The translations under genes and the position numbers were made by a program. The notes under the pieces are model-generated. The model saw only the letters and a program-made list of their open reading frames with translations, did not search any database and was not told the DNA's origin. Of a stretch of DNA of 64,000 nucleotides, positions 2,536 through 25,378 are shown in pieces. The DNA is from a virus. Each line of letters begins with the position of its first letter. Position 1 is the first letter of the stretch. Where the stretch lies: the IMG/VR virus record IMGVR_UViG_3300042311_000920, positions 9,440 to 73,439 of that record, one strand, 5' to 3'.

Positions 2536-2991
2536 ATGAAAAAACTTTTTTTATTACTGTTATTGCCTACTTTGGCAATTTCTCAAAACGTTGGAATCGG
2601 AACGAAAAACCCAACGGCTAAACTAGAAGTTAATGGAAACGTAAAACTAAAAGCGTCAATAGGTACGGTAAACGATACTATTTTAGTTATTCGAAATGGC
2701 GAAATAATGAAAGTGCCTGCATCTTTTTATCAATACACACCGCCTACAAATTGCCCCTTACTCGTTACGGGTCAAGGTCAAAGTAATGGTTACTATTTGA
2801 AATTTCAATCAAACGTCCCAATTGTTAACCCAAGCGCTACACTCGTAATTCAGGGCAAAACTTTTCAAGCAGCGGGAACGTGGGTAAGTAGCAATACCTA
2901 CTTCTACTCTTACACTAATACGAGTGGTTCTCCTTTAAATATTAACCAGCCTTTTACCGTTAATTTTACGGGGCAAATTTGTCAGTATTAA
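2536..2991 (+). CDS. secreted protein with Bacteroidota-type VGIGTxxP motif
   Basis: Signal peptide MKKLFLLLLLPTLAIS then QNVGIGTKNPTAKLEVNG; its TAA stop forms the left boundary of array 1. Confidence 0.7.
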   Translation: MKKLFLLLLLPTLAISQNVGIGTKNPTAKLEVNGNVKLKASIGTVNDTILVIRNGEIMKVPASFYQYTPPTNCPLLVTGQGQSNGYYLKFQSNVPIVNPSATLVIQGKTFQAAGTWVSSNTYFYSYTNTSGSPLNINQPFTVNFTGQICQY

Positions 2992-3206
2992 CAGCAAAGT
3001 ATATAAGCAGTAGCGGAGTGAGTAGCACAGCACGTAAGAGGGAAGGCTGGAATTTCAAATGTGCATTGTCATTTCGGTATAACCAAGCCCCGCCCGCTAT
3101 TTCTTATATTTATTGTTATAAAATCCTTTTAATGTTTTACAACGTTTGGTGCTTTCTGTCTGTAGCGGATTTCAGCACCAAGCCATTAAAACACAAAACC
3201 AAAATT

Positions 3207-3434
3207 ATGGAATCACTTGAAAAATTTATAGAAAAAAGAATGCAACAATCGGAATTTTCAGCAATGATGATCCCTAGATATTTAGAAAAGCCAAATGCTT
3301 TTTTAGGTTCAAAAAATTACACTTTGGAAAAAGCGGCAGAATTTAAAGCAGATGCTGAGAAATGCAAAGCATTAATGATGTTTTTAAAAGAATATAATAA
3401 ACTTTTGAAAACCAAGCGTAACAATGGAAACTAA
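3207..3434 (+). CDS. hypothetical protein in degenerate cassette unit
   Basis: ATG 3207 (MESLEKF...); TAA overlaps the AAC of the next hairpin. Confidence 0.55.
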   Translation: MESLEKFIEKRMQQSEFSAMMIPRYLEKPNAFLGSKNYTLEKAAEFKADAEKCKALMMFLKEYNKLLKTKRNNGN

Positions 3435-3484
3435 CGTTGAATTATTGTCGTCAGGTGGCGACAAACACAAAACAAAATATAAAA

Positions 3485-3817
3485 ATGAAAGTAATGACAA
3501 AACATTCAGAGAATACCCAAACCGCCACTTGCGACAATAATTTGTTAGTAGATTATCATCCTTTTGACCTTAAGCCTCAACATAGAGATTTAGGAGGAAA
3601 AATACCTTTTGTTCATAATAAGACAGGTTTTACAGAATTGTATCCAAAAGCTTATAGTTATCCGGCCAAAAGATGCGAAAATTGCTTGTTTTATAGAGTA
3701 GAGAGAAGTACTACTCCTGTTGCTTACTATTGTCGAATTGGTATGTTTTCAAGTTATGTACAGGCAACCGCAAAAAGAGATGAAGACAAACCAACTGAAT
3801 GTCAGGTTTATTGGTAA
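3485..3817 (+). CDS. cassette hypothetical protein, Cys-rich C-terminus
   Basis: ATG in the loop of hairpin 3433-3546; reads through GTT at 3544. Confidence 0.6.
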   Translation: MKVMTKHSENTQTATCDNNLLVDYHPFDLKPQHRDLGGKIPFVHNKTGFTELYPKAYSYPAKRCENCLFYRVERSTTPVAYYCRIGMFSSYVQATAKRDEDKPTECQVYW

Positions 3818-3825
3818 TATCTACT

Positions 3826-3950
3826 AACGGATTGCGGTTTTGTCTTGTTGCCGAAAATACAAGACCAATTTTAATTTAAAAAACTATGAATACAAGTACA
3901 AAAAATTCATCAAATGAAGCCGAAAATGGCAATAAGTCAAAACCGCTGTT
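3826..3950. repeat. attC-like hairpin, close relative of 6085-6209
   Basis: Arms GCGGTTTTGTCTTGTTGCC / GGCAATAAGTCAAAACCGC; shares TTTGTCTTGTTGCCGAAAATACAAGACCAA with 6085-6209. Confidence 0.85.
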
Positions 3951-4119
3951 ATATGATGGCATTTTCGTAGGGCAGAAAGTTATTGATGAAGATTGCGATA
4001 AAGGAACGATAACAGAAATAGAAAATATCTACAATGTTTATGTAAAATATGATAATGGCGGAAGTGGTATTTCTTGTTTAAATGGTTGTTGCAACGACAG
4101 GTTGTATGCTATCATATAA
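3886..4119 (+). CDS. cassette hypothetical protein
   Basis: Starts in hairpin loop (…EAENGNKSKPLL); TAA lies in the terminal TAAC. Confidence 0.6.
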   Translation: MNTSTKNSSNEAENGNKSKPLLYDGIFVGQKVIDEDCDKGTITEIENIYNVYVKYDNGGSGISCLNGCCNDRLYAII

Positions 4120-4255
4120 CGTTTTCGGGCTTGGCGAAGTGCCGCTAACCGAAACTTAATTTTTAGCACTAACTGTCCTGCGGCATTTTGCCAAACCCGT
4201 GTTATGGGATAGTTTTAAAAACCTTTTAGGGTGGGCATTTAAAAACAAAATTAAA

Positions 4256-4651
4256 ATGGGAATGTACACAGAATTAATTTTTGGTGCTGAATTAAAAAAA
4301 GACACACCAAACCAAGTAATTGAAGCCTTGAAATATATGATAGGTGAAACAAAAGAAAAGCCAAGTGATTTCCCGTTACCTGATGGAAGATGTGAATGGT
4401 TATTTCAAGGCGGTAGCTATTACTTCGCTATCAATAATTCAGTAACAAAAATGTGGCTTGATGATATTGATAAGCAATGGCATATTAGCACACGTTCAAA
4501 TATTAAGAATTACGAAAGTGAAATTGAAACATTTTTAGACTGGATAAAGCCATACATTGACGGTGGTTCTGGTGGTAGAGATTTATATGCCATTACCATT
4601 TATGAAGAACAAGACACACCAACTCTTTATTATTTGCACGATGCTGATTAG
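4256..4651 (+). CDS. cassette hypothetical protein
   Basis: ATG 4256 inside cassette 4201-4691. Confidence 0.7.
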   Translation: MGMYTELIFGAELKKDTPNQVIEALKYMIGETKEKPSDFPLPDGRCEWLFQGGSYYFAINNSVTKMWLDDIDKQWHISTRSNIKNYESEIETFLDWIKPYIDGGSGGRDLYAITIYEEQDTPTLYYLHDAD

Positions 4652-4688
4652 TACGGTGCGGTGGGAAAAGGTTTTTAAAATTTCCCAT

Positions 4689-4754
4689 AACGTTTTGCAG
4701 ATACACGCTGTGAGCGTTGAATTGAGGGAGGGGAAATAGCGTGTATCTGCTGTT
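4689..4754. repeat. short attC-like hairpin
   Basis: AAC-GTTTT-GCAGATACACGCT...AGCGTGTATCTGC-T-GTT, perfect 13-bp arms. Confidence 0.85.
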
Positions 4755-4795
4755 ATGCCTTCGTTGCGGATTATTAACTTAAAAACTAAAATATA

Positions 4796-5122
4796 ATGGA
4801 TAAATTTCCAAAATTCATCATAGAAGATGATAAATTAATACTAATGAAAGTAACATATCATAAAGAGATTGCTACTGATTTAACTAAAGTAAAAGGCGGT
4901 GGTTGGTTTAAATATTTGCAACATACCGATATGTTTGTTTTTAGCGGAGAAAGCCACGATTTTGGCAAAGCTAAATTTGAAGATATAAAACAATGTGTTG
5001 CAAATTGCCAAGTATATTCAGATAACCGCCTTTACCGAAATATCAGTAATAATCACAATTTTGGATATGATACAGGAACAGAAATTATCGAATTGAAAAC
5101 GGAATGTAGCAATGAGGCATAA
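4796..5122 (+). CDS. cassette hypothetical protein
   Basis: Fills cassette 4752-5123. Confidence 0.7.
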   Translation: MDKFPKFIIEDDKLILMKVTYHKEIATDLTKVKGGGWFKYLQHTDMFVFSGESHDFGKAKFEDIKQCVANCQVYSDNRLYRNISNNHNFGYDTGTEIIELKTECSNEA

Positions 5123-5261
5123 CGTTTTGCAGCTATATGTCTGTTGCCAAAAGTAAAAAACAATGCTTCGATTAAGCACAAATAATCACAAGTACAAAAC
5201 AAATTATAAATCAAGCCGAATGTGGCAATAAGTCAAAACCGCTGTTATAAGTAGTACGGAT

Positions 5262-5402
5262 ATGAAAATCACAAAAGAATTTTTAGAAAAAATAAAAAAA
5301 GAAAACAATATATTGATATTTAAACTAGCGTCGATTGAGGGTAAAATACCAAAAGAAATACAAGACACATTACCTAAAGAAGTAATTACAAACAGATTGT
5401 AG
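5262..5402 (+). CDS. cassette small hypothetical protein (46 aa)
   Basis: MKITKEFLEK...NRL*, fills cassette 5244-5415; below ORF-track cutoff. Confidence 0.5.
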   Translation: MKITKEFLEKIKKENNILIFKLASIEGKIPKEIQDTLPKEVITNRL

Positions 5403-5557
5403 TATTACTTATAACGTTTTGCAGGTAGGCGATAGTGCCGCTTACCACAAACTTTAAATCAAAGCACTCAGGCTCATAGCGGCATTTTGCCTACCTGCTG
5501 TTAGGTGTCTGTAAAAAATAAATTTAGCGTGGGCTTAAACTTTAAATAACAAACAAA

Positions 5558-6043
5558 ATGGAATTACAAGAATTAATTGAAAAGAACAAACTGCAATTAC
5601 GCACACAAGAAGATATTTCTGCAAAGTTTGACGAATTGCAAAATTCAGGTGGCTTTATGGATTTTCGACCAGAAGTATTGATTAACTTTTTATCATTTGA
5701 AAACGCAAAGCCACATTTGAAAGAAGACTACGTGAAAGAAGTTGAAGCAGGAACAAAGCAATGGGAGCAACATACTACGGTTGAAAAGGCTGCCGAAGAG
5801 TTTTTGGACTATATGAAATTTGCTTGGGGTAAAGCCGAAGATGAACGTGGAATTTCAGCAAGCCGTTCAGTTCAAAAACTAGGAATGTGGCTTTGGATTA
5901 TGAACCGAGATGATTTGCGTAGAGTTATTGAGGATGATGATTTGTACAATCCTTATGGCGCACCTGCTTTAATTGAAGTTTGCAATCAAATGGGTATAAA
6001 AGTTCCAAACTCATTAATCGAATTTGCTAAGATAAAATGCTAA
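5558..6043 (+). CDS. cassette hypothetical protein
   Basis: 161-aa ORF in cassette 5500-6087. Confidence 0.75.
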   Translation: MELQELIEKNKLQLRTQEDISAKFDELQNSGGFMDFRPEVLINFLSFENAKPHLKEDYVKEVEAGTKQWEQHTTVEKAAEEFLDYMKFAWGKAEDERGISASRSVQKLGMWLWIMNRDDLRRVIEDDDLYNPYGAPALIEVCNQMGIKVPNSLIEFAKIKC

Positions 6044-6084
6044 TTATGTTGGGTGCGGTGGGAAATTTATTTTTTATTGCACCT

Positions 6085-6209
6085 AACATTCTCGTGGCTT
6101 TGTCTTGTTGCCGAAAATACAAGACCAACTTTAAATTTATCACTATGAAAAATGACACAAAACCAGCATTACCCGAAGCCGAAAACGGCAATAAGTCAAA
6201 ACCACTGTT
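6085..6209. repeat. attC-like hairpin, close relative of 3826-3950
   Basis: Arms GTGGCTTTGTCTTGTTGCC / GGCAATAAGTCAAAACCAC. Confidence 0.85.
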
Positions 6210-6582
6210 ACAAGCAGTGTTTTTCGCTCCTTATTTGCCTTATTCGGTAAAAATAGCTTATGATTATTTTGGAGATACACAAGAAATAGCAACATTAATA
6301 GGTGTTGAAGATAGAAATGGAGAAACTAGATTGCAAATTAATACTGGCGGAAGTGCTTTGTTAAAATATTGCAAACTTGTTTTAAAACCTTTTTCAGATT
6401 ATACTGAAATATTAGAAATAACAGATGAAATGAATGATTATGAAATCCAAATGATTGAAGATAATCCTGATTTAATAAAACGACTACCTTATGATGTGGT
6501 TGAAAAAATGTTTAAAAATCACATTGATGTTTTCGGACTTATTAATTTCGGTTTAGCCGTTTCAATTCACGATGTTGTGTAA
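6145..6582 (+). CDS. cassette hypothetical protein
   Basis: ATG 6145 in hairpin loop; N-terminus …EAENGNKSKPLL as in 3886. Confidence 0.65.
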   Translation: MKNDTKPALPEAENGNKSKPLLQAVFFAPYLPYSVKIAYDYFGDTQEIATLIGVEDRNGETRLQINTGGSALLKYCKLVLKPFSDYTEILEITDEMNDYEIQMIEDNPDLIKRLPYDVVEKMFKNHIDVFGLINFGLAVSIHDVV

Positions 6583-6735
6583 CATTGCTTGTAACGTTCC
6601 GCAACTACACGTCTGTTGCGTAAAAGTACAAAATTACCTTTCAGTTTAACACGGAATTGAAAGGTACAAAAACATCACTAAATTAATCACAAATCTAGCA
6701 ATAGCGTGTAATTGCTGTTATCAAATCGGTTTATT

Positions 6736-7062
6736 ATGAAAAGATTACCTGTTATACACGATGTAAAAGTTTGGAGTAGATTTTGGCAAAATCTAACTAT
6801 CGAAGAAAAAAACTTTGAATTAAGAAAATTAGATAGAGATTATCAAGTAAATGATTATTTACGATTGAATTTCTATTCAGAAGATTTAAAAGAAATTATA
6901 GAAACTGAAAAGCCTAAAATTGCTAAAATTCAATACATTTTAAAAGATGCTGAAATGTTTGGATTGCAAAAAGATTACGGAATATTATCCTTAAAATATT
7001 ATAGTTCTTTTTCTTTTCAAGAAAGGGTAGAGTTTTTGAAAACGCAAACCCAAACTGTTTGA
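6736..7062 (+). CDS. ASCH/PUA-like DUF3850 protein (cassette)
   Basis: HDVK...KNFELRKLDRDYQVNDYLRL matches the DUF3850/ASCH pattern. Confidence 0.7.
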   Translation: MKRLPVIHDVKVWSRFWQNLTIEEKNFELRKLDRDYQVNDYLRLNFYSEDLKEIIETEKPKIAKIQYILKDAEMFGLQKDYGILSLKYYSSFSFQERVEFLKTQTQTV

Positions 7063-7134
7063 TAACGGCTACGCATATACGCAGTAGCGGATTTAAAACA
7101 CAAAAGTTTAATTAACAAATAAAAGTAAAATAGA

Positions 7135-7476
7135 ATGAAAAAGTTTAAAATTAGCACAGTAGCCGCTATTGCCGTATATGCGATGTTAGCGGTTGTTTTT
7201 ACTTCTTGTGATGATGCAGGGGTAACTTCAAAAAGATTAAATGGCGATGAACAAAATTTGCCTGATGAACTGAAAGGACTAAAAATTTATTCAGTTTCGA
7301 CAGGTAATGGGAATTATGTAAAAGTTGCCGTTTTAGACGGTAAGATAAACTCAACAACTTACCAAGTAGGTAAAGTTCAAGAATCGACAGTAATAGTAAA
7401 TAAACAAAACGGCAAACTTATAGAGGTTAGCCAAATTTTGGTTGAAAACGACAGCGTGATTGTCTGCCGAAAATAA
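7135..7476 (+). CDS. putative lipoprotein (cassette)
   Basis: MKK + hydrophobic stretch + lipobox FTSC. Confidence 0.7.
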   Translation: MKKFKISTVAAIAVYAMLAVVFTSCDDAGVTSKRLNGDEQNLPDELKGLKIYSVSTGNGNYVKVAVLDGKINSTTYQVGKVQESTVIVNKQNGKLIEVSQILVENDSVIVCRK

Positions 7477-7548
7477 CCGCTAACGGTTCTCGGCTTTGTC
7501 GTCGTTGCGACTTATGAAAACTAATATTAATATTTTAAACTAAACGAA

Positions 7549-7833
7549 ATGAAAAACGATAATTCAACTAAACAAAGCAATGCGTCAAAACCGATGTTAG
7601 CGGAAGGCTGGATTTCTGTTAACGATAGAAGACCAAATGAAAATCAAACAGTATGGTGTTATTCAGAAAACACATTTAACATATTTGTAGGAGTTTATAT
7701 TTACCTTACAAATGAAGGTTGGTTTTGGGCTTCAAGTAACGGTTGCTTTTATATTGAAGAGGGAAAAATAATAACAGAATGTGAGATTGATGATTTTGAT
7801 GTTACACATTGGTTTCCCGCTCCAGTTCTGTAG
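7549..7833 (+). CDS. DUF551-like protein (cassette)
   Basis: WISVNDRRP...VTHWFPAP signature. Confidence 0.75.
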   Translation: MKNDNSTKQSNASKPMLAEGWISVNDRRPNENQTVWCYSENTFNIFVGVYIYLTNEGWFWASSNGCFYIEEGKIITECEIDDFDVTHWFPAPVL

Positions 7834-8060
7834 CTTTCCGCTAACGTTTCTCGGCTTTGCTTTGTTGCGGAAAAGTAAGCCAAAACTTTAGATTTAAAAA
7901 CAAAATTAACAAATACAAACCAAACATTCAGTTAAGCCTAAAACCGCAATAGAGCAAAACCGATGTTATAAGTAGCTTTTATTATGGATGAAATAATTTT
8001 ATGTTTAGGAATGATTGTTGGATTAATATTATTTATAATTAGTATAAAACAAGAGTAAAA

Positions 8061-8333
8061 ATGGAAAGTAAAATAGAATATTTTAATAGATACAGTGATA
8101 CGCATTTGCCTGATAAAATGAATAGATGGGCAAGAATAGCTGTATTTAAAAACATTAGAATTGCTTGGATAAGTAAACATAAGATTAAAGAGCAAGATAC
8201 ATTTTGTGTAACGTGCCATTTTCCAACTATGCAAAATGATACAGCAAACGAAAGTAAAGTTTTCTTTAGTTTAGAAGATGCAAAAGATTTTGTTTCTGAA
8301 AGATGGAATTTTTTTTTAACCGCAGTTTCTTAA
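8061..8333 (+). CDS. cassette hypothetical protein
   Basis: In cassette 7965-8346, preceded by a 24-aa hydrophobic mini-ORF at 7984-8058. Confidence 0.65.
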   Translation: MESKIEYFNRYSDTHLPDKMNRWARIAVFKNIRIAWISKHKIKEQDTFCVTCHFPTMQNDTANESKVFFSLEDAKDFVSERWNFFLTAVS

Positions 8334-8464
8334 AGTTACTTATAACGTTCCCACGATAGGGGCTGTTTGCCTATTTACAAAGTTGCTTTCGGCAAATAGC
8401 ACTTATCGTGTGTTGTGCGATGGTGCTTTTAAATACAAATATTAACCAATTAAATTACAATAAA

Positions 8465-8680
8465 ATGTCAAAACGAAAATACTCAAAAATGTCGGACAAA
8501 GTTGAAATAACACATTATGAATGTACTAATAGAAAGTGCAAGTGGCAAGGAACTAATAAACAAAAAGGAACTCAATATTTAGATAATGGATTTACGGAAT
8601 TGATTTGCCCTAAATGCTGTAATAATGAATTTTACGGATTACTTCCGTCTTATGTAGATTCTATTTCTGCGGTTTCGTAG
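8465..8680 (+). CDS. small Zn-ribbon-like protein (cassette)
   Basis: CTNRKC...CPKC; ATG 8465. Confidence 0.6.
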   Translation: MSKRKYSKMSDKVEITHYECTNRKCKWQGTNKQKGTQYLDNGFTELICPKCCNNEFYGLLPSYVDSISAVS

Positions 8681-8846
8681 CATCTCGCACAACGTATCGG
8701 TGCTATACGATGTGGCGGATTTTCGGCAGAAAGCCCAATACGAAGCACCACAGTTGAATTAAATAAAAATGTTTAATCGAAGCACGTCAGCCGCCATATT
8801 GTATAGCACTTGTTAGCGGATGCCGTTTCTTCACAACAATTTTAAA

Positions 8847-9083
8847 ATGGAATATAAAGCACAAGAACTCAAAAAAGATTTAATAACAAAGCGTTGCATT
8901 GATAACGATATGACAATGGATGAAGCCTGTAAAGAAATAGGAATTTCAAAAGCCACTTTGTCAAGGTTGGAAAAGTCTAAACTGCCAGATGTTGAAACAT
9001 TAGGTAAGGTTTGCACTTGGTTAGGAACTGAACCAAATAAATACTTTGTCATTATTCGTAAGCGTCAAGACGGTTTCCGCTAA
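8847..9083 (+). CDS. XRE-family HTH regulator (cassette)
   Basis: MTMDEACKEIGISKATLSRLEKSKLPDVETL. Confidence 0.85.
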   Translation: MEYKAQELKKDLITKRCIDNDMTMDEACKEIGISKATLSRLEKSKLPDVETLGKVCTWLGTEPNKYFVIIRKRQDGFR

Positions 9084-9255
9084 CCGTTCGGGGCTTGTAG
9101 CAGTAGGGGATTAGAAGCACTACTGTTCAACCTACCACAAAAGCTGATTAGAAGTACACAGCTTAATTAAAGCACTTCTGCCCCTATTGCTACAAACCCT
9201 TGTTAGCAGAAGTGGCGGTTAATTTACAAGGGTGTCAATTTTAAAACGTAAAAAA

Positions 9256-9558
9256 ATGATTAAAAATTCAGAACAACCAATCAGTCCAATGCCTTACCAA
9301 AATCAAGATGGCTCTATTCAACACGATGTTTATTTTGGATTAACTAAAAGAGAACATATTGCTATTGAAGCAATGAAGGGCTTTTTAGCAAACCCATCTG
9401 AAACAGAAGTAAGTTCAACTTATGTATTGGAAGCAATCGGGTTGCCAAAAGAAACTAAGTATTCATTTGATGAGCATTACACAAAGTATGTTTCACAAAT
9501 AGCAGTCAAATATGCCGATGCCTTATTAAAGGAATTGTCAATCGGAGACGGTCGGTAG
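9256..9558 (+). CDS. phage hypothetical protein with GLTKRE motif (cassette)
   Basis: GLTKREHIAIEAMKG...AVKYADALLKEL pattern common in phage small proteins. Confidence 0.7.
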   Translation: MIKNSEQPISPMPYQNQDGSIQHDVYFGLTKREHIAIEAMKGFLANPSETEVSSTYVLEAIGLPKETKYSFDEHYTKYVSQIAVKYADALLKELSIGDGR

Positions 9559-9628
9559 CCATTTCTGCTAACGGCTACGGCTATGTGCAGTAGCGGATTT
9601 AAAACACTAAACTTTAAATATAGAACGA

Positions 9629-10420
9629 ATGATGATAGTAGAACAAATTTTGAATAACGCACCGAACCCGCTATTGCATATAGCCGATGTTAGTGGCGGT
9701 GCTTTGTTCAATGCTGATTGTATGGATATTTTACCTCTTATTCCTAATAAATCGGTTCAACTTATTTTGGCTGATTTGCCTTACGGAACAACAAGTTGTG
9801 CGTGGGATTGTATTATTCCATTTGACAAACTTTGGGCTGAATATGGTAGAATAATAAAAGACAATGGTGCAATAGTTTTAACGGCTTCACAACCATTTAC
9901 AAGTGCCTTAGTAAACAGTAAAATTGAATGGTTTAAATATGCTTTAGTTTGGGAAAAAGAAAGACCAAGCAACCCTGCACACGCAAAGATTAGATTTATG
10001 AAATGGCACGAAGATATTTTGATTTTTTCACCTAATAAAGAAAAGTTTAATCCACAAAAAGAAAAACGATTAGAGCAAAATAAAAGGAATAACAAACAAG
10101 GTGTATTTCATAAATCTGATGCTTATGGAGAACAAACAATACCACAAGGCGATGGGATGGCTGATGAAAAGTATTTGAGTAGCATATTAAAGGTAAATGT
10201 TGAAAGAGGGTTGCACCCAACGCAAAAGCCGTTAAAACTATTTAAAACATTGATTAGTGCCTTTACGGATGAAAATGATTATGTACTTGATAATACAATG
10301 GGAGTAGGCACAACTTGTTTAGGAGCAAAAGAGTTGAACCGTTCCTTTATTGGAATTGAAAAAGAGGTAAAATATTATGATTTGGCAGTTGGTCGGGTGT
10401 TCGGTCAGCATTGCCACTAA
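9629..10420 (+). CDS. N6-adenine/N4-cytosine DNA methyltransferase, beta class (cassette)
   Basis: DLPY catalytic motif, HPTQKP, VLDNTMGVGTT SAM motif. Confidence 0.92.
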   Translation: MMIVEQILNNAPNPLLHIADVSGGALFNADCMDILPLIPNKSVQLILADLPYGTTSCAWDCIIPFDKLWAEYGRIIKDNGAIVLTASQPFTSALVNSKIEWFKYALVWEKERPSNPAHAKIRFMKWHEDILIFSPNKEKFNPQKEKRLEQNKRNNKQGVFHKSDAYGEQTIPQGDGMADEKYLSSILKVNVERGLHPTQKPLKLFKTLISAFTDENDYVLDNTMGVGTTCLGAKELNRSFIGIEKEVKYYDLAVGRVFGQHCH

Positions 10421-10574
10421 CGGTTTCGGGCTTGGCGAAGGTGGGCTTGTAGGATGCTCAATTTTAGCAGAATGTTTCTGCCCACTTTTGCCAAACCCGT
10501 GTTATGTGTAGTTGCGGTTGTTTATCAGGAACTTAAATTGAAAACGAATAAAAAAGAATTAGAAAAAAGAAGCG

Positions 10575-11276
10575 ATGGAATTAAATAAAATATATAACGA
10601 AGATTGCATTGAAGGTATGAAGAAAATACCATCTGCGAGTATTGATATGGTTCTAACTGACCCACCATATACATCTCCAACTGTTCACGCATTCGGAAGG
10701 CAAAAAGTAAACCGATTATCAGATTTAGCAATACAAGAATTTTACTTTGCTGAAATCAAAAAGGAATGGGAACGAATACTGAAACCCAATGCACCTGTTT
10801 TGATTTTCTGCGATGATATTTATAGTGCTGTTTTGATGGGTTTGTTTTACGAATGGCAACAAAAGAATTTAGTTATTTGGGATAAGGGTAGAATTGGAAT
10901 GGGAAACCCGTTTAGAAAACAGCACGAACTTGTATTTTATGCAAACAGAGGAAGTATTGAATTGAATAAAACCAATATGAGCCACATTCCTACTGTAATA
11001 AAAGAAACGCTAACAAAAGAACATCACGGAGCAGAAAAGCCAGTAAAACTATTGATGAAACTGATTGACGGACTTACAAAAGAAAATGCAACAGTTTTGG
11101 ATTGCTTTATGGGAAGTGGCTCAACTGCGATTGCTTGTTTAGAAACGAAAAGAAACTATATCGGTTTTGAACTTGATAAAAGCTATTATGAAACTTCACA
11201 AAATCGTATTTCTTCCTTGTGCGGTGGGCTTTTTTCTAATTCTTTTTCAACGGAAAGTTCAATTGAAACGGGATGA
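10575..11276 (+). CDS. N6/N4 DNA methyltransferase, beta class (cassette)
   Basis: TDPPY, HGAEKP, VLDCFMGSGST. Confidence 0.92.
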   Translation: MELNKIYNEDCIEGMKKIPSASIDMVLTDPPYTSPTVHAFGRQKVNRLSDLAIQEFYFAEIKKEWERILKPNAPVLIFCDDIYSAVLMGLFYEWQQKNLVIWDKGRIGMGNPFRKQHELVFYANRGSIELNKTNMSHIPTVIKETLTKEHHGAEKPVKLLMKLIDGLTKENATVLDCFMGSGSTAIACLETKRNYIGFELDKSYYETSQNRISSLCGGLFSNSFSTESSIETG

Positions 11277-11290
11277 TAGCAATTACACAT

Positions 11291-11337
11291 AACGTTTTGC
11301 AGATTGGCGGTCGTTTTAATGCCGCCAATGTGCTGTT
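11291..11337. repeat. minimal attC-like hairpin (47 bp)
   Basis: AAC-GTTTT-GCAGATTGGCGG...CCGCCAATGTGC-T-GTT. Confidence 0.8.
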
Positions 11338-11400
11338 ACAGGTAGTAGGGATTTCTACCACAAAACTTAATTAGAAGTACAAACAAAAAAGAATTTAAAA

Positions 11401-12276
11401 ATGAGCGAGGGCAAAAAAAGAAAAATTAAAGTATTATCATTATTCGATGGTATGAGTTGCGGACAAATAGCTTTAAACAAGCAAGGGATTGAATATGATG
11501 AATATTTTGCTTCTGAAATTGACAAAGAAGCTATAAAGGTAACTATGAAAAACTACCCAAACACAAAACAATTAGGTAGTATTACGGAACTAAAAGGAAT
11601 TGATTTGCCAAAAATAGATTTGCTATTTGGCGGAAGCCCTTGTCAAAGTTTTAGTAGAGCAGGAGATAACAGTGGATTTGACGGAAGTAGTAAATTGTTT
11701 TGGGAATTTGTAAGAGTTTTGAATGAAGTAGAACCTACTTACTTTTTACTTGAAAATGTAATTATGAAAAAAGAATGGGAAGATGTAATTACGGAAGCGT
11801 TAGGAGTGAAACCTATTGAGATTACAAGTGCTAAATTTGTACCACAAGCAAGACGAAGATTATATTGGACTAATATACCCAATGTAACGCAACCGAAACA
11901 ATCTGAATACACTGTTTTAGACTTTATTGATGGTGATGGGTTTCCGACAAGTTGCGGAATTGATAGAGTTTTTAAACGCAAAGAAATATTTAATACTTTG
12001 ACGGCAACTTATTGGAAAGGAATTAGAGGAAGTTCAAGACCAGCAGTAAGTATTAGAGAAGGATTTTTAGATGCGGACAGAGAAGCACACCGTATGCTAA
12101 CACCAACAGAATGTGAACGACTACAAACAGTACCTATTGGATATACGGATTGTGTTGCTAAAACAAATAGATATAAGATGCTTGGTAATGGTTGGACAGT
12201 TGATGTGATTGCTCATATTTTTTCTTTTTTAAAGGAGGGGAAATTTTTAAATTCTTTTTCTGACGAAAATGTTTAA
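11401..12276 (+). CDS. C5-cytosine DNA methyltransferase (cassette)
   Basis: LSLFDG, GGSPCQ, LLENV, QARRRLYW, RMLTPTECERLQ, LGNGW. Confidence 0.93.
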   Translation: MSEGKKRKIKVLSLFDGMSCGQIALNKQGIEYDEYFASEIDKEAIKVTMKNYPNTKQLGSITELKGIDLPKIDLLFGGSPCQSFSRAGDNSGFDGSSKLFWEFVRVLNEVEPTYFLLENVIMKKEWEDVITEALGVKPIEITSAKFVPQARRRLYWTNIPNVTQPKQSEYTVLDFIDGDGFPTSCGIDRVFKRKEIFNTLTATYWKGIRGSSRPAVSIREGFLDADREAHRMLTPTECERLQTVPIGYTDCVAKTNRYKMLGNGWTVDVIAHIFSFLKEGKFLNSFSDENV

Positions 12277-12377
12277 TCAAAGCACTTCACCGCTATTACC
12301 TGTAACGGTTCTCGGCTTGGCGAAGTTGCCGAACACAAAACTTCATTAGAATTACAAATGTTTAAATCAAAGATAGA

Positions 12378-13022
12378 ATGTCAAACGAAGCACAAAACGG
12401 CAATTTTGCCAAACCGATGTTAGCACCAGTACGGGTTTTAAATCTATACGCTGGAATTGGAGGAAACCGAAAACATTGGGAAAATGTAGAAGTAACTGCA
12501 ATAGAATACAACGAAGAAATTGCAAATGTTTACAAGAAATTACATCCAAACGATAATGTGATAGTTACTGATGCACACGATTATTTGGCTAAAAATTGGA
12601 GAGAGTTTGATTTTATATGGAGTTCGCCACCATGTCAAAGTCATAGCAAAGTAAGAATGATGGCAAGTAAAAGCGGAAGTTATGATGCTGTAATGCCTGA
12701 TATGAAATTGTGGAGTGAAATAATTTTTTTACAGAACTTTACTAAAAACACAGATATAAAGTTTGTAGTTGAAAATGTAAAGCCTTATTACGAACCATTT
12801 GTAAAACCAACTGCAAAACTTGGTAGGCATTTATTTTGGGCAAACTTTGAAATACCTGAAGCCGAAATAAAAGATGGATTAACCCACAATGAAAGAGGAA
12901 GTTCTGAAAAAGGTTATTTTGACTTACGAGAATATAAAATAAAACACAGAAAAGACCAAATAATTCGTAATTGCGTTGACCCAAATGTAGGACAATATGT
13001 TCTCGGTTGTGCAGTTTCGTAG
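12378..13022 (+). CDS. short C5-methyltransferase-like protein (cassette)
   Basis: LYAGIGG, SPPCQ, ENV; no obvious TRD or motifs IX-X. Confidence 0.85.
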   Translation: MSNEAQNGNFAKPMLAPVRVLNLYAGIGGNRKHWENVEVTAIEYNEEIANVYKKLHPNDNVIVTDAHDYLAKNWREFDFIWSSPPCQSHSKVRMMASKSGSYDAVMPDMKLWSEIIFLQNFTKNTDIKFVVENVKPYYEPFVKPTAKLGRHLFWANFEIPEAEIKDGLTHNERGSSEKGYFDLREYKIKHRKDQIIRNCVDPNVGQYVLGCAVS

Positions 13023-13066
13023 TATTGGTGCTAACTAATCGCTAATCGCTATAAAACCAAATCAAA

Positions 13067-14032: not shown

Positions 14033-15331
14033 ATGGCAACAATTAAATTTACCGTGCGAGGGAAGAAAAACCCGTCGCCCATCTACATCCGTTTTGCAGA
14101 GGGAAAAAATATAGACCTTCACGAAAAATCTGGACTTTATGTAAATCCAATTTTTTGGGACCAGAAAAAGCAACAGATCCGGAAAGTTCTCGAAGTAGCA
14201 AACAAAGACGATATCAATTCCAATCTTCGGAAACTTGAAATTTATTTGATTGATGAATTTAATCAATCATTTATGACCGGCCAAGTAATAAATAAGCAAT
14301 GGCTGTTGCAATCTATCCAAAAATTCTTTAATCGCCCTAAAAACGAAGAAAAACTACAAAATTTAAAGCATCACATTTATTTTTCAGATTACGCCCAACA
14401 CTGGATTGATAACAAGGCTAAAAAATTCAAAGTTGCCGCCAATAAATATATGGACGAAACAACGATAGGACATTATCAGCAAGTTTTGGATAACTTCAAA
14501 GATTTCGAAGGAAAAAACAAAGTAAAACTATGCGATTTAAGCAACTTAAAATTAGACGAGTTCTCTTTATACCTTTCAGATACTAAAAGCTATTCAGAAT
14601 CTACTAGCAAGCGTAAAGTTGGACGCGTTAAGTTCTTTTGCGCACGTGCCGAAAGCGACAATTTAGAAGTCAACAAACAATACAAAGAAAGAGTTTTCGT
14701 CAAAGAGCAAGAAATCGAATACAAGCAGCCTTATTTAAACGAAGATGAAATTAACAACATTTTTAAATTGAAACTAGAACCTAATTGTCCAATGGATCAT
14801 GTTCGAGATAATTTAATAATTGGATTATGGACTGGCTTAAGGGTGTCAGACTTTCTAACGAGATTAAACGTCTCCAATATTCAAGATGGTTTTATCAAAA
14901 TAAAAACAATGAAAACAAAAACATTTGTCAATATTCCGATACACTCACAAGTAGCTTTTATTTTGAATAAAAGAAACGGACAACTACCTAATAAAATATC
15001 AGAGCAAAAGTTTAACGACCACATAAAAACCTTGACGCAGATAGTAGGTATTGATGATTTAATGATTGGAGGAGTGATGAAAGTTGACGAAAAAACTAAA
15101 GTTAAAAGGAAAGTAATTGATACATATAAAAAGTGGGAGTTAATGACCTCTCACGTTGGGCGCAGATCATTTGCTACAAATTTGTTCGGAAAAGTATCTA
15201 ATAAAACCATTTGTGACGTATGCGGCTGGTCAAATGAAGATATGCTTTTTGCTTACAACAAAACCACGAACATGGAATCAGCGAATGTACTTAAGGATTA
15301 CTGGGATAAAAAATACGAATCAAAAATATAA
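14033..15331 (+). CDS. int: tyrosine recombinase / phage integrase (Bacteroidota type with arm-binding and SAM-like domains)
   Basis: TGLRVSD (R), KTMKT (K), SHVGRRSFATN (HxxR), CGWSNE, FAY (Y); 432 aa. Confidence 0.92.
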   Translation: MATIKFTVRGKKNPSPIYIRFAEGKNIDLHEKSGLYVNPIFWDQKKQQIRKVLEVANKDDINSNLRKLEIYLIDEFNQSFMTGQVINKQWLLQSIQKFFNRPKNEEKLQNLKHHIYFSDYAQHWIDNKAKKFKVAANKYMDETTIGHYQQVLDNFKDFEGKNKVKLCDLSNLKLDEFSLYLSDTKSYSESTSKRKVGRVKFFCARAESDNLEVNKQYKERVFVKEQEIEYKQPYLNEDEINNIFKLKLEPNCPMDHVRDNLIIGLWTGLRVSDFLTRLNVSNIQDGFIKIKTMKTKTFVNIPIHSQVAFILNKRNGQLPNKISEQKFNDHIKTLTQIVGIDDLMIGGVMKVDEKTKVKRKVIDTYKKWELMTSHVGRRSFATNLFGKVSNKTICDVCGWSNEDMLFAYNKTTNMESANVLKDYWDKKYESKI

Positions 15332-15333
15332 CC

Positions 15334-15588
15334 ATGAAAGAAATGAACGATATTGCGTTAAACAAAATGATAAATAAACTCCCTTTTGTTTTTGACTGGG
15401 TTAATTACAAAGGCGAAGATGTTGTGGCGCAGATTAATTTAGAAGCAACAAAAAAAGCAAAAAAACCGATGTTAGATATTAGCTACTGTATGACTAAAGC
15501 TATTAACCAGGTAATTATAGCCACGGTTCAATTTGACAAAAGTAAGTTTAAAAAATCTTCTCTTTCTGACACTAATTGGACTCAATAA
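15334..15588 (+). CDS. hypothetical protein
   Basis: 84-aa ORF directly after the integrase. Confidence 0.55.
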   Translation: MKEMNDIALNKMINKLPFVFDWVNYKGEDVVAQINLEATKKAKKPMLDISYCMTKAINQVIIATVQFDKSKFKKSSLSDTNWTQ

Positions 15589-15613
15589 AATACCCATAAA
15601 TTAAACTATAACT

Positions 15614-15814
15614 ATGGAAAAAGATATTGAAGACAAAGATATTCTCCGCAACGTGATAAATGCTCTCAACCTGAAACGAAAAGAGTTCCACGTAAAAATC
15701 GGGTACTGACAAACAATCATTTATAAAATTTTGAACGGAGACGCTCGCATATCAAATCAAAGAAAAAGTATAAAAAGTGAAATTATTTTTCACACAAGTG
15801 TTGTTTATGTGTAA
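15614..15814 (+). pseudogene. possible degenerate HTH regulator
   Basis: MEKDIEDKDILRNVINALNLKRKEFHVKIGY*QTIIYKILNG: HTH-like with in-frame TGA at 15707. Confidence 0.3.
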
Positions 15815-15830
15815 AATGTACTTATATTTG
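15801..15830 (+). promoter_or_regulatory. Bacteroidota primary-sigma promoter
   Basis: TTG-N19-TATATTTG matches the -33/-7 consensus (TAnnTTTG). Confidence 0.75.
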
Positions 15831-16004
15831 TCCTTGAATCAGTCTGGGTGGAATCAGATTTGATTATCTGACAATACACCAGTACTGATGCAAAAAAAGA
15901 TAATCCTTAATCAAGCTCCTCCACCCGGCAAGATTAAGGTTTTTTTTGTGCCTTATTTTAAACAAAAAGCTATATACTGAAGGGATTAAAAGAGTGAAGC
16001 GGTA

Positions 16005-16167
16005 TATTTCTAATGCGTTACTTCGGGGGTGGTTAAATAAAGCGCAGCTGTGACATAAAGGAAAGAGCAGTAGATTTAACAGGCAAGGTAATTTGTCTTA
16101 AAATAGATTCCACGTTTAACCGCATTACTGACGAGTTAAATAGTTCGACGAGCCGACGAAAACTCAC
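16005..16167 (+). ncRNA. hammerhead-ribozyme-like motif (type III topology)
   Basis: TTC|TAATGCG (16008-16017) pairs with CGCATTA just before CTGACGA (16128-16134); stem II GTT...GAC; GAAA at 16158; stem III weak. Confidence 0.45.
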
Positions 16168-16522: not shown

Positions 16523-16553
16523 AAAAATAATTGAGATTTAAATCTAAAATAAT

Positions 16554-16584: not shown

Positions 16585-16591
16585 CCTTGTC

Positions 16592-22007: not shown

Positions 22008-22187
22008 ATGACAACTTACGGACAAATAGTTGACGGTAAAAGAATAACACTAAATGACTTTGAAAAACAAGTTCGAGAAGGCGTTTCTGGCATCGTAACT
22101 AACCTAACATCAGCGGAAATAGCCAAACGTTACCGTAAAGGCGAATCCGTGGATAATGCAGTGAGTTATTTTATAATGCACAAGTAA
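22008..22187 (+). CDS. small hypothetical protein (59 aa)
   Basis: MTTYGQIVDG...MHK*; its TAA forms the left boundary of array 2. Confidence 0.55.
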   Translation: MTTYGQIVDGKRITLNDFEKQVREGVSGIVTNLTSAEIAKRYRKGESVDNAVSYFIMHK

Positions 22188-22265
22188 CGTCCTGTGGCTT
22201 TGTCTAGTGGCGTTGAATTAAGACTAGACACAACAAAAATACACTAATTATTAAATTTAAAAATT

Positions 22266-22586
22266 ATGATTTCAGATAACACCCAATCCAAGCCATTAAA
22301 CAAAACGACTGTTAGCGGTTCGGTTACTGACAATATGACCTTTAAAGACGCTTTAAAGTCATTAGGAATAGAAGATTATGCTGAACGGATTTTTAATAGT
22401 AATTCACACGGAGAATTATTTCATATTCAACAGTATTTTACTTTAGCAAAGGTTCTAAAAGGAAATTCAGAGTGGTTTAGAGAATGGTTTGAAAAAGTTG
22501 TGAAATGGGCAGAAGAAAATTGGGAACGACCAGAATCAATTTTCCAACACATTAGTCAAATTTTAGTAGATAGTCGTTCTAACTGA
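22266..22586 (+). CDS. cassette hypothetical protein
   Basis: ATG in hairpin loop; an internal ATG is also possible. Confidence 0.65.
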   Translation: MISDNTQSKPLNKTTVSGSVTDNMTFKDALKSLGIEDYAERIFNSNSHGELFHIQQYFTLAKVLKGNSEWFREWFEKVVKWAEENWERPESIFQHISQILVDSRSN

Positions 22587-22874
22587 CGGCTAACTGATTT
22601 ACCTGATTACAACGGGAAAAGAGCTTTTGGATTAGGTTCGGTAGACGAAATTTGGATTATAGATGATTTTGAATATTGTACGGAATATCCTGATTTACCG
22701 ATGCGATAACATTACCACTAACGTTTTGCAACTTGCATTAGTGCCTTGCAAACAAGCGAGTAGTTTCGGATTAAGACTAAACACAACAAAGAAAAACAAA
22801 ATATAAATTAATAACCAAGCCAAAGGCATTGATGCAAATTGCTGTTATCACTTCGGCTTTTTATTCCAAAAAAT

Positions 22875-23117
22875 ATGACAACAGATGAAATGCTTATCGA
22901 AATTGTAAATTACAATTACAAATCCGCTGGTTTTCCTTATGTATTTTTAGACTACTCACAATCTTTTAAATATTGGGCAATTACTTGGCGAAATCCAGTT
23001 GATTTTTCAAATGAAAAACAAACTAATGCACCAACTCCAAATGAGGCGTGTAAAAAAGCACTCGAATTTATAAAAAGCAATCCGAGTATTTTTAGCCGTT
23101 CCAACCAAGCTGAGTGA
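22875..23117 (+). CDS. cassette hypothetical protein
   Basis: ATG 22875 within cassette 22844-23121. Confidence 0.65.
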   Translation: MTTDEMLIEIVNYNYKSAGFPYVFLDYSQSFKYWAITWRNPVDFSNEKQTNAPTPNEACKKALEFIKSNPSIFSRSNQAE

Positions 23118-23278
23118 TAACGTTTCCACGCTTGGCGAAGGTGGCGATTTTAACCACAAATACTGATGCGTAGAACGAAATTTGAATATAGCAATAATTG
23201 TCAAGCGGAGTACTGCACCGCCACTTTTGCCAAACGTGTGTTATGCGTTCGGCTTTTTTGGAACTTAAAAATTTGATT

Positions 23279-23668
23279 ATGAAAGAAAGTATTATTAGAT
23301 GTCCAATTTGCAGTAAGATTACAGCGTTGGAAAAAAATGGACGAACTCAAAAAATAGAGCAAGTTCACGGAATTTGTTGGGATAAAATTGGCTATTCGAT
23401 TGGTGGGTGGGGAAGCCGAAGAGATTTTATTCACGGATTTTCTGGCGAAGTTTGTAATGATTGTTTCACAGCTTTAAAAACAAAAATCAATGAATTTAAA
23501 GAAGTTGTTAACCAAAGAACAAACTCCTGCGAAGAAGGGGTATGTATTTACAAAACATCAAAAGACAAATCAACAGGGGATAACCTGTCTGACCTGCAAC
23601 AAGACGAGTTACAATCCAAACGACATAAAACACCTTTATTGCGGTTGCTGTCATCGTTTTCACGATAG
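23279..23668 (+). CDS. cassette Zn-finger-like protein
   Basis: CPIC...CNDC; ATG 23279. Confidence 0.55.
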   Translation: MKESIIRCPICSKITALEKNGRTQKIEQVHGICWDKIGYSIGGWGSRRDFIHGFSGEVCNDCFTALKTKINEFKEVVNQRTNSCEEGVCIYKTSKDKSTGDNLSDLQQDELQSKRHKTPLLRLLSSFSR

Positions 23669-23681
23669 CGTTGTAAGCTGA
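23490..23681 (+). CDS. overlapping small Zn-finger protein
   Basis: CLTC-NKTSYNPND-IKHLYCGCCH; stop falls in the cassette end. Confidence 0.5.
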   Translation: MNLKKLLTKEQTPAKKGYVFTKHQKTNQQGITCLTCNKTSYNPNDIKHLYCGCCHRFHDSVVS

Positions 23682-23748
23682 CGCATAACGTTTCGCGGCT
23701 ACACGAGGTTTGGGACTAAATTAGCAATAATTTTTAAATTTAATACAA

Positions 23749-24582
23749 ATGATAGAGATACAAAACCAACTTGAAATTAAGCCTGAAACGGCAATAGCAC
23801 AAAACCGATGTTACCAGCAGTGTTTTTTGTCGGACAATTTGGATTTAATGAAAACAATAGAAAGCAATACCATTGATTTGATTTACTGCGATATTCTTTA
23901 CGGAACTGGCAGAAACTTTAGCGACTACCAAGACTTAAAACCGATTAGAAGTGAAATTGAAGCACATTATTTACCACGATTAAAAGAAATGTATCGAATA
24001 CTAAAACCAACAGGGAGTATTTATTTACAAATGGATACAAGAATAAACCATTGGATGCGAATTTTAATGGATGATATTTTTGGCTATGATAGAATGTTGA
24101 ATGAAATTGTAGTTTGTATTAGTAAAGGAAATCAAACAAACAAACACTTTGCAAAAAGGCACGATATTTTACTTTATTACACAAAAACAAAAGAATGGAT
24201 TTATAATTTAGATGCTGTTTCAAAAGAAAATCCTGAACATAAAAGGTATAAATACCAAGATGAAAAAGGAATGTATAGATGGCATATTGAAAGCATCAAA
24301 GATTATAAAATGTATCTTAAAAAACAAAATATAAACGATGTTTGGAGTGATGTAGGAATTGTTCAAGGCAACTCAATAGAAAATACAGGTTATTCTACAC
24401 AAAAACCAAAATCATTGATTGAACGAATTATAAAAGCAAGTAGTAACGAAGGAGATTTAGTTGCTGATTTCTATGCTGGAAGTTTTACAACAGCAGTGGT
24501 TTGTAAAGAACTAAATAGGAATTTTATCGGATGCGATATTAATCCTTTGGCTTTGGAGATTTCAAAACAACGATTGGCTTAA
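23749..24582 (+). CDS. N6/N4 DNA methyltransferase, beta class (cassette)
   Basis: DLIYCDILY (variant DPPY), YSTQKP, VADFYAGSFTT. Confidence 0.88.
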   Translation: MIEIQNQLEIKPETAIAQNRCYQQCFLSDNLDLMKTIESNTIDLIYCDILYGTGRNFSDYQDLKPIRSEIEAHYLPRLKEMYRILKPTGSIYLQMDTRINHWMRILMDDIFGYDRMLNEIVVCISKGNQTNKHFAKRHDILLYYTKTKEWIYNLDAVSKENPEHKRYKYQDEKGMYRWHIESIKDYKMYLKKQNINDVWSDVGIVQGNSIENTGYSTQKPKSLIERIIKASSNEGDLVADFYAGSFTTAVVCKELNRNFIGCDINPLALEISKQRLA

Positions 24583-24731
24583 CATTGCTGGTAACGTTTG
24601 TGGCTTTGCTTAGTGGCTGAAAAGCAAGCCTAAATTATTGAATTAAAAACAAATTTTACAAACACAAAACAGTGTTGAAATTTTGCCCGAAACAGCCATT
24701 GAGCAAAACCACTGTTATAAACAGGCTTTTT

Positions 24732-25346
24732 ATGAAAATACTTAATTTATATTGTGGTATTGGTGGAAATAGAAAACTTTGGGGAAACGAACACGAAATA
24801 ACTGCTGTTGAATTTGAACCAAAAATAGCTGAAAAATACAAAACTTTATTTCCAAATGATACGGTAATAGTTGCAGATGCACATCAGTATTTACTTGACC
24901 ATTATTCAGAGTTTGACTTTATATGGACTTCTCCACCTTGCCAAACACATAGCCGAGCAAATTATTTTATAAATTATATTACTAATTCTCGTTACCCAAA
25001 AATGGAATTATGGCAAGAAATAATATTCTTAAAATCATTTTTTAAAGGCAAATTTTGTGTTGAAAATGTAGTTAGTTATTATGAATTTTTTATACCACCG
25101 ACTGCTGAAATAGGAAGGCATTATTTATGGTCTAATTTTAAAATACCAAAAATACCATTGCCAAAAGATGAAGTAGGAACTATGATGAAAGAATATGTAG
25201 GCAAAAAAAATCACGCACATAGTAAGAAATTAGAAGATAGAAACGCTGTTAATTCAGATTTAGGACTTCATATTTTAAATTGCGCAACAGAAAGTTATAA
25301 TCAAAATAATGTTGAACAGATAGGTTTGTTCAAAGCTTGTTTATAA
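24732..25346 (+). CDS. short C5-methyltransferase-like protein (cassette)
   Basis: LYCGIGG, SPPCQ, ENV; paralogue of 12378-13022. Confidence 0.85.
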   Translation: MKILNLYCGIGGNRKLWGNEHEITAVEFEPKIAEKYKTLFPNDTVIVADAHQYLLDHYSEFDFIWTSPPCQTHSRANYFINYITNSRYPKMELWQEIIFLKSFFKGKFCVENVVSYYEFFIPPTAEIGRHYLWSNFKIPKIPLPKDEVGTMMKEYVGKKNHAHSKKLEDRNAVNSDLGLHILNCATESYNQNNVEQIGLFKACL

Positions 25347-25378
25347 CTAATTTATAACCGCTATAAATGTATTACAAA

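Follow-up and report, generated by a model that had tools for sequence, protein, structure and literature searches.

The stretch of DNA analysed here (the window) comprises 64,000 nt, positions 9,440 to 73,439 of the IMG/VR virus record IMGVR_UViG_3300042311_000920, and it carries two arrays of small gene cassettes that both end in the same short motif, where the other cassettes are followed by a hairpin. With rather more confidence than doubt, we take this motif to be the putative fixed half of a double-stranded site for recombination that closes the array on its downstream side, a functional counterpart of the attI site of integrons, and the terminal site probably acts as the docking site for the capture of new gene cassettes. 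The window was taken from inside a record of 73,439 bp that is rated 100% complete. Deposited phages match the window closely over short stretches only, all in Flavobacterium phages; the phage is of the Bacteroidota type.

Regions 2989-13035 and 22185-25347 of the window consist of small plus-strand genes with long imperfect hairpins between them. Array 1 (2989..13035, plus strand) holds about 19-20 units and array 2 (22185..25347, plus strand) holds five units of the same design, as called with a hairpin detector and a table of own-end repeats. The order within a unit is TAAC, a bulged hairpin, GTTA with a cassette-specific repeat, an open reading frame (ORF), the inverted repeat and again TAAC. 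The plus strand carries all cassette ORFs of the window, and their reading direction is towards the terminal site. Orphan DNA methyltransferases, recognized with Pfam, occupy six cassettes: array 1 ends with four of them and array 2 with two. The last cassette of array 1 (12303..13035, plus strand) is made up of the hairpin 12303-12422, a short C5 DNA methyltransferase ORF running from 12378 or 12418 to 13022 (PF00145, E 3.5e-11), the end repeat and the TAAC at 13032-13035. The last cassette of array 2 (24592..25347, plus strand) has the hairpin 24592-24717 and another short C5 methyltransferase ORF ending at 25346 (PF00145, E 3.8e-07), with its TAAC at 25344-25347.

Both copies of the motif lie on the plus strand and were located by direct reading and by pattern search, copy 1, AACTAATCGCTAATCGCTATAAA, at 13033-13055 and copy 2, AACTAATTTATAACCGCTATAAA, at 25345-25367; as the initial annotation had it, they are identical at 19 of 23 positions and differ at 4. 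A pattern derived from the two strings and allowing up to 3 mismatches matched only these 2 places in the window (0.08 expected; none of 100 shuffles reached 2 or more matches) and the same 2 places only in the whole record, a uniqueness test that is post hoc because the pattern comes from those two sites. The first three letters of the motif (AAC) are part of the closing TAAC of the last cassette, and the shared part proper begins at 13036 and 25348. The repeats of the last cassette of array 1, compared by eye, start with GTTAGCACCA at 12419 and close with TGGTGCTAAC at 13035, and those of array 2 are GTTATAAACAGG at 24714 and CTTGTTTATAAC at 25347. Folded as single-stranded DNA, the two flanks reach only -4.0 and -3.6 kcal/mol (z -1.2 and -1.5), whereas the hairpins preceding them reach -16.2 and -18.0 kcal/mol. 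The label of a non-hairpin site that replaces the hairpin is therefore right, the closing TAAC being followed by the motif here and by a hairpin after the other cassettes.

The hairpins themselves resemble attC sites in that an imperfect palindrome with an unpaired spacer lies between ..AAC and GTT.. boxes. The left side consists of TAAC (rarely CAAC), a G and about four unpaired bases, followed by a stem of 15-20 bp and a loop, while the right side has one unpaired base and then GTTA. The left spacer is longer than the right one by 3-5 nt in all 20 hairpins of the window with a detector score of at least 18, most often with 5 nt against 1 nt, and the same 5/1 arrangement is the commonest among 354 oriented hairpins of other loci (193 hairpins). 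GTTA is followed by 10-15 nt that are reverse-complementary to the far end of the same cassette, just before the next TAAC, and that do not match the neighbouring cassette across the hairpin. The start of the cassette is complementary to its own distal box in 22 of 23 window cassettes, two of them by eye, and the complementarity fails in the first cassette of array 1. Position 11 of the repeat is a G.T pair, with G in 78% of 280 cassette starts and T as the matching base of 322 cassette ends (A in 89% of the reverse complements). An Rfam search of the array region returned no attC-type family, and its one match, the unrelated SNORD99, stayed below threshold (27.7 bits against a gathering score of 60; E 0.1).

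Each array has one direction, which is given by the asymmetric bulge, the G.T pair and the array ends, for an array begins with TAAC and a hairpin and ends with TAAC and the motif. One orientation is kept per locus nearly always, and hairpins of mixed orientation were seen at 3 loci. Read on the minus strand, the order is the site, G|TTA-cassette and hairpin. Like attI, the site lies at the end of the array that the crossover box of the cassette sites points towards. The hairpin word TAACG-N7-GCTTGGCGAAG gave at least 120 matches in viral contigs and was found in at least 120 contigs of bacterial genomes and metagenome-assembled genomes (MAGs; loci L173-L292), so the hairpin-cassette system is common in viral and bacterial contigs alike. 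By title, these bacterial contigs are mostly Flavobacterium, Chitinophaga, Hymenobacter, Pedobacter, Riemerella and Chryseobacterium, that is, Bacteroidota; a few titles name other phyla, which may be due to chance or mis-binning.

The motif recurs at array ends of other phages. A scan of 2.9 million viral contigs with the literal pattern TAACTAAT-N7-CGCTATAAA gave 9 loci, five of which (three distinct sequences) are unrelated sequence and look like chance matches. The locus L005, which begins 117 nt upstream of the motif, was set aside, and L004 and L007/L008 are array ends, where cassettes of 362 and 145 nt, respectively, stop at TAAC and the motif follows. Array ends were also called without the motif, by seeking the reverse complement of the first 11 nt of a cassette downstream with one mismatch allowed and by checking after each cassette end whether a hairpin came next. 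Among the 354 hairpins, no end was found for 172 (mostly at locus edges), 135 cassettes were followed by a hairpin, 2 ended at an edge and 45 ended before something other than a hairpin. These 45 flanks and the two window sites made 47, from which 14 were dropped and near-duplicates removed to leave 26, later 28; the dropped ones were flanks starting with G (most of them with a recognisable hairpin arm), an odd AAAC end (L049) and three copies of another repeated element in L128. The wider consensus of the array end is TAAC-N6-MTAYNCGMAAY, which both window motifs fit, and the 26 flanks have T at position 8 in 24, A at 9 in 19, C at 12 in 20, G at 13 in 19 and A at 16 in 18.

The leave-one-out score of the terminal site is at least 8 in 15 of the 26 flanks. 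On hairpin-bearing strands, 29 of 2857 TAAC[TA] sites score this high, and all 29 lie 141-2745 nt downstream of a hairpin at seeming cassette ends, 12 of them outside the training set; on strands without detected hairpins the count is 6 of 5094, four of which look like undetected array ends. When array ends with 400 nt or more of sequence behind them were compared by tblastx of that sequence, the 35 of this kind fell into 23 clusters of downstream context, so that the end-site is tied to the arrays and not to one downstream gene. Replication on 120 bacterial and MAG contigs, 71 of them with oriented hairpins, yielded 9 new dereplicated flanks, and 4 of these scored at least 8 versus 3 of 2041 controls. 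A lack of enrichment at array ends elsewhere, the outcome that would speak against the site proposed in the initial annotation, was tested for, and strong enrichment of the motif or its wider consensus was found at array ends in other phages.

The build of the site was read with an independent matrix, made from positions 3-12 of the reverse-complemented cassette ends (n = 322) with no terminal flank used. On 28 terminal flanks this matrix has a single peak, with box position 3 at flank position 8, where the mean is +2.1 and the 19 other offsets give -4 to -18; the mean of 5089 control flanks is -11.0 (standard deviation 6.3; Mann-Whitney p 1.5e-15). A score of at least 4 is reached by 39% of terminal flanks versus 0.7% of controls. 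The cassette-end form of the matrix (A at position 11) fits better than the cassette-start form (+2.1 vs -0.7), and in the bacterial and MAG contigs the peak falls at the same single offset (mean +1.9). This peak shows that the generic cassette-end box recurs, degenerate and inverted, at flank positions 6-17. The terminal site is thus composed of the cassette-end arm closing in TAA, a spacer of about 7 nt (C + N6) and an inverted arm of 11-12 nt with the consensus K-M-T-A-N-N-C-G-M-A-A-Y.

In the window, site 1 has the variable 6-nt spacer TAATCG (13036..13041, plus strand), whose positions differ among homologous loci and which makes about 7 nt with the C of TAAC, and the right arm GCTAATCGCTAT (13041..13052, plus strand), an inverted degenerate cassette-end box with a terminal-site matrix score of 8.3. 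The spacer of site 2 (25348-25353, plus strand) precedes the right arm TATAACCGCTAT (25353..25364, plus strand), which scores 9.9. A layout of the Xer/dif type, with two inverted arms of about 11 bp and a centre of 6-8 bp, is found at the consensus level only, and at that level the arm-spacer-arm arrangement appears to resemble the core site of a tyrosine recombinase. Another origin was tried and dropped, in which the site would be the left arm of a hairpin, the terminal matrix matching left arms only rarely (15 of 324, versus 2 of 324 shuffled ones).

A junction of TAAC, 5-6 nt and a GTTA-like box is also what a hairpin junction minus its stem-loop would look like. The site could accordingly be a former junction whose stem-loop was deleted, leaving TAAC, a spacer and a decayed GTTA box and freezing the next gene in place. 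We regard such a collapse as unlikely. Neither of the genes that follow the window sites is closed by a matching end repeat on the plus strand over the next few kb, the reverse complement of either arm found no cassette-like position downstream on that strand, and the hairpin detector found no hairpins after either site. The first base of the flank is T or A, whereas hairpin junctions have G. None of the 26 terminal arms has T at box position 2, and 24 have C or A there; all cassette boxes have T at this position, but the detector, which demands GTT[AG], imposes it. One and the same substitution across 23 contexts is unlike random decay. The terminal arm is a distinct variant and not a decayed GTTA box.

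An expression signal is another reading of the motif. In many loci the next start codon comes about 28-47 nt behind TAAC, and motif copy 2 runs into a non-coding stretch of about 200 nt (to 25551) that is conserved in the relatives L007 and L008, both of which would suit a promoter, an operator or a translation-start element of the first backbone gene after the array. This is, however, distinctly improbable, since the spacing that the arm keeps is to TAAC and not to the start codon, 23 unrelated contexts follow it, and it resembles a cassette-end box, a likeness that expression does not need. What we take to be the -7 promoter word of Bacteroidota is absent from the motif.

The cassettes behave as mobile units that stop at the site. 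An 802-nt unit (CTAAC|G, hairpin, ORF, ..CATAAC|) is 100% identical in three loci, being followed by the terminal site in L094 and by two different hairpins in L138 and L104, and the sequence before it differs between L094 and L138/L104. Among 208 high-scoring segment pairs (HSPs) between loci (at least 88% identity over at least 150 nt), 79 start within 15 nt before the post-TAAC point; 16 HSP ends fall at the point just after the left TAAC, and a second group of ends lies 20-40 nt past GTTA. Identical cassettes and HSP breakpoints together indicate a unit of one hairpin and its downstream gene, ending at TAAC. In metagenome contigs from four runs (X3-X6), pieces break off at 13035 and 12307 and begin at 2989 and 7063, the piece of the last cassette of array 1 halting precisely at 13035. 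The joints in these contigs are between TAAC junctions, and with sides of 20-38 nt that may stem from relatives they lend weak support.

L167, whose contig also carries L078, matches L168 at 97% identity for 563 nt, with the homology beginning precisely at the terminal TAAC, and the two share nothing in the 2.2 kb upstream of it. The homology of L052 and L154 likewise begins at the terminal TAAC. The L078-type flank was found letter for letter in six further metagenome contigs, with at least 45 nt of identical flank. The 8 contigs with this flank (including L078 and L168), one of which is too short for a last-cassette call, show at least seven different last-cassette ends. Six relatives of the gene of 74 amino acids that follows array 1 were found in viral contigs, each with an array end before it, and among these loci the spacers differ, while the arms are partly conserved down to 42% protein identity.

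These junctions also dispose of the simplest account of the likeness, in which the two copies are similar only as the 3' untranslated tails of duplicated C5 methyltransferase genes. Both last cassettes encode PF00145 proteins and have a 98-nt stretch (family D8) in common at 70% identity, as such a duplication would leave. But their end repeats differ and close at TAAC before the motif, the motif follows the last cassettes of L004 and L007/L008, which have their own end repeats and are not methyltransferase cassettes, and one identical flank abuts the varied cassette ends just described. A shared tail is therefore scarcely credible.

The exact TAAC junctions, the identity of terminal and internal cassettes and the number of last cassettes per flank give an attI-like role structural support. 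A polarity of content also speaks for it, as methyltransferase-like cassettes outside the window (tblastn with the six window enzymes, E < 1e-5) are more frequent at rank 1, beside the site (13/43), than at rank 2 or higher (7/61; Fisher p 0.023). In the proposed mechanism, an excised, circular cassette would fold its complete hairpin on the sense strand, and one strand of the folded cassette would be exchanged at TAA|C with the core site, the arm-spacer-arm core being of the type that may be bound by tyrosine recombinase dimers. The product of strand exchange would be fixed by replication. New cassettes would thus enter beside the motif, which would stay in place and set the polarity of the array.

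Several observations weigh against this capture site. The cassette genes face the site, the opposite of integrons. The rank test on methyltransferase-like cassettes ignores relatedness. In the closely related L066 and L122, the last cassette is common to both and the differences lie farther upstream, which shows that turnover also takes place away from the motif end. No recombination event at the terminal site was seen among the loci and contigs compared, and no empty site (gene-TAAC-spacer-arm with no cassette) among the loci and contigs scanned. About 40% of terminal flanks fit the consensus poorly (leave-one-out score below 6 in 7 of 26), 5 of the 9 replication flanks score below 8, and the arrays of Polaribacter phage P12002L share a different end sequence of about 70 nt, outside the consensus. 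The flanks were dereplicated by sequence only, so that some share ancestry, and the removal of G-starting flanks partly builds in the T or A at position 1. On the side of the enzyme, no integron-integrase NCBIfam model matched the tyrosine recombinase of the genome, and PF00589 was without match in 3 of 5 other array-bearing records, including one rated 100% complete and the complete isolate genome of P12002L. Of the attI equivalence put forward in the initial annotation, the position outside the cassette at the array end, the inverted-arm layout and the polarity of content stand, while the insertion and the empty site were not seen and the integron integrase is absent.

Some of these observations are what would be expected of a passive boundary, where the motif is the original right flank or backbone edge, exchange takes place at any TAAC and the motif has no present role or polarity, the consensus reflecting a target preference at seeding. 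Homology breakpoints occur at internal TAAC junctions too, L066 and L122 agree in the last cassette and differ upstream, the metagenome contigs contain other cassette orders (with short-sided joints), and neither an empty site nor an insertion is seen. We nevertheless consider a passive boundary rather unlikely. The arm is kept at fixed spacing in 23 unrelated contexts and also in very diverged homologous loci (downstream ORF 42% identical), which argues for continuing selection, and C or A but never T at box position 2 points to a distinct variant.

If the site is a capture point, an enzyme must be sought for it. The genome has a single tyrosine recombinase (14033..15331, plus strand; PF00589, PF13102, PF17293), which lies 1 kb to the right of site 1, has arm-binding and SAM-like domains of the Bacteroidota type and is probably the lysogeny integrase. 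Its sole NCBIfam match at E<=0.01 was to a generic subfamily model of tyrosine recombinases, with 24 bits where the cut-off is 279. No PF00589 protein is near array 2, the recombinase is absent from the homologous locus in L078, and no relatives of it were found in the viral contigs by the search method used. The genome gave 0 matches to PF01797 for a Y1 transposase and has no serine recombinase. The recombinase acting on the arrays is not an integron integrase and is, in general, probably not phage-encoded; because PF00589 is lacking in 3 of 5 array-bearing records, a host enzyme is likely. The Xer recombinases are candidates because Bacteroidetes microviruses (PMC3091885) and Flavobacterium single-stranded DNA phages (PMC9719478) are reported, in the available text of these papers, to use dif and XerC/D. 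A search for likeness to host dif in 5 Bacteroidota genomes gave no match with a strict palindromic pattern, and a relaxed pattern stayed at control level. A wider proposal, tentative but in our view possible, is that of a phylum-wide capture platform independent of integron integrases, in which a host Xer-type tyrosine recombinase would insert cassettes folded on the sense strand, by single-strand exchange at the arm-spacer-arm site, and the motif would be a dif-like phage 'attI'. Cassettes consisting of a 5' hairpin and a gene, often an anti-restriction methyltransferase, would circularise, and counter-defence genes would be swapped at a fixed address.

Among known systems, the site is closest to described features of integron attI in several respects: a fixed array end, a junction with the crossover box (AAC/GTT), a non-hairpin, double-stranded form, a highly variable adjoining cassette and, at consensus level, what appear to be two inverted recombinase-type boxes around a short spacer. 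Unlike attI, the phage site has no adjacent integron integrase and is present twice in one genome. The phage cassettes differ from those of integrons too, since their genes are transcribed towards the site and not away from it, the hairpin lies upstream of its gene and often contains the start codon, and the end repeats are 10-15 nt long and cassette-specific with a conserved G.T pair. IS200/IS605-type transposition is a single-strand process guided by hairpins, with insertion 3' of a tetranucleotide. The phage cassettes share with it the insertion just 3' of a fixed tetranucleotide (TAAC), the subterminal hairpin and the strand specificity, but there is no Y1 transposase in the genome and the unit has one hairpin and long end repeats, not two end hairpins.

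Phage CALINs, which are clusters of attC sites without an integrase, have been described before (Qi et al., 2023; PMC9892861). According to the available text of that paper, two attC-like sites in 'divergent directions' were predicted around DNA methyltransferase genes of Polaribacter phage P12002L, and recombination of one of the two with attI1 was obtained in E. coli with IntI1. The P12002L genome contains the same kind of hairpin-cassette units as the window, so the window arrays are a variant of a published kind. Unlike the phage CALINs as described in the available text, those of the window have a dedicated array-end site. In the literature searched, as far as the texts available extend and with the supplementary CALIN boundaries of Qi et al. 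aside, no array-end site was described for Bacteroidota phages. The array ends of P12002L are the same phenomenon with another sequence. The ~70-nt ends of P12002L (L166) lie at 37200-37300 and 29150-29250 of its record, following a Mom-like gene and a methyltransferase gene, so that DNA-modification genes are again last.

With dif-type Xer sites (CTX-phi type; PMC3091885, PMC9719478, in the parts available) the terminal site shares the arm-spacer-arm core, and with the elements that exploit dif it shares a folded single-stranded hairpin partner, many carriers without a recombinase of their own and a host phylum whose dif and XerC/D are used by phages. It differs from dif, as the available text gives it, in the spacer, which is about 7 nt here against 6 nt in a 28-nt layout, and gene cassettes within a phage are concerned here, whereas there the whole element enters the chromosome. 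The mobile regulatory cassettes PeSL of T4-type phages (PMC2839356, PMC4122927) are described in the available text as promoter-terminator motifs that are thought to work by way of homology. They are alike in placing stem-loops between small variable phage genes and in their tie to gene shuffling; on the same partial basis, the cassette-specific stems, exact TAAC junctions, inverted-repeat ends and dedicated non-hairpin end-site of the window set it apart.

If the site is a capture point, the arrays would be a working integron analogue in phages, with a definite target, a definite mobile unit and a cargo in which orphan DNA methyltransferases abound, which would explain the fast renewal of anti-restriction genes in Bacteroidota phages. 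It would also provide an exact address at which recent acquisitions could be sought in metagenomes. This would be a second independent case of a folded single strand recombining with a double-stranded site, and the driving enzyme, whether of host or phage, would become testable.

Further observations concern the hairpins and the sites. The hairpin 5120-5247 is chimeric, with a right arm nearly identical to that of the hairpin 3825-3951 and a left arm of another family that pairs poorly, which suggests exchange within hairpins besides that at TAAC. The first hairpin of array 2 (22185-22319, spanning TAAC through GTTA and 9 nt more) has 87% identity with 2563-2696 of L007, the first hairpin of the array of this relative, while both flanks differ from those of the window. 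In runs X3 and X4, the hairpin 12303-12422 continues into other sequence directly after GTTA. The hairpin shared with L007 and these joints indicate that hairpins can re-associate with other gene bodies. In L128 (minus orientation, ~7600-9300), three successive cassettes have the same element of about 50 nt after each TAAC; the detector does not score it as a hairpin, and it may be another class of inter-cassette site. Both window copies (13036-13052 and 25348-25364) provide TAA stops in three frames within 14 nt of the cassette end, which is probably incidental since the wider consensus does not keep them.

As to the neighbouring genes, relatives of the RecT-like gene upstream were followed at 26 loci, where there were few hairpins and the motif was not found. 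The record G001, which holds L008, has a homologue of the gene of 152 amino acids 3' of array 1 in another context without an array. A stretch of about 1.3 kb nearly free of ORFs (15588-16928) lies 3' of the integrase, with a single weak palindrome at 16855-16911, and is a candidate attP or regulatory region. Just 3' of array 2, the window has two tandem NUMOD4-HNH-AP2 homing-endonuclease-like genes (25807-27122), and P12002L has an HNH endonuclease within its array region.

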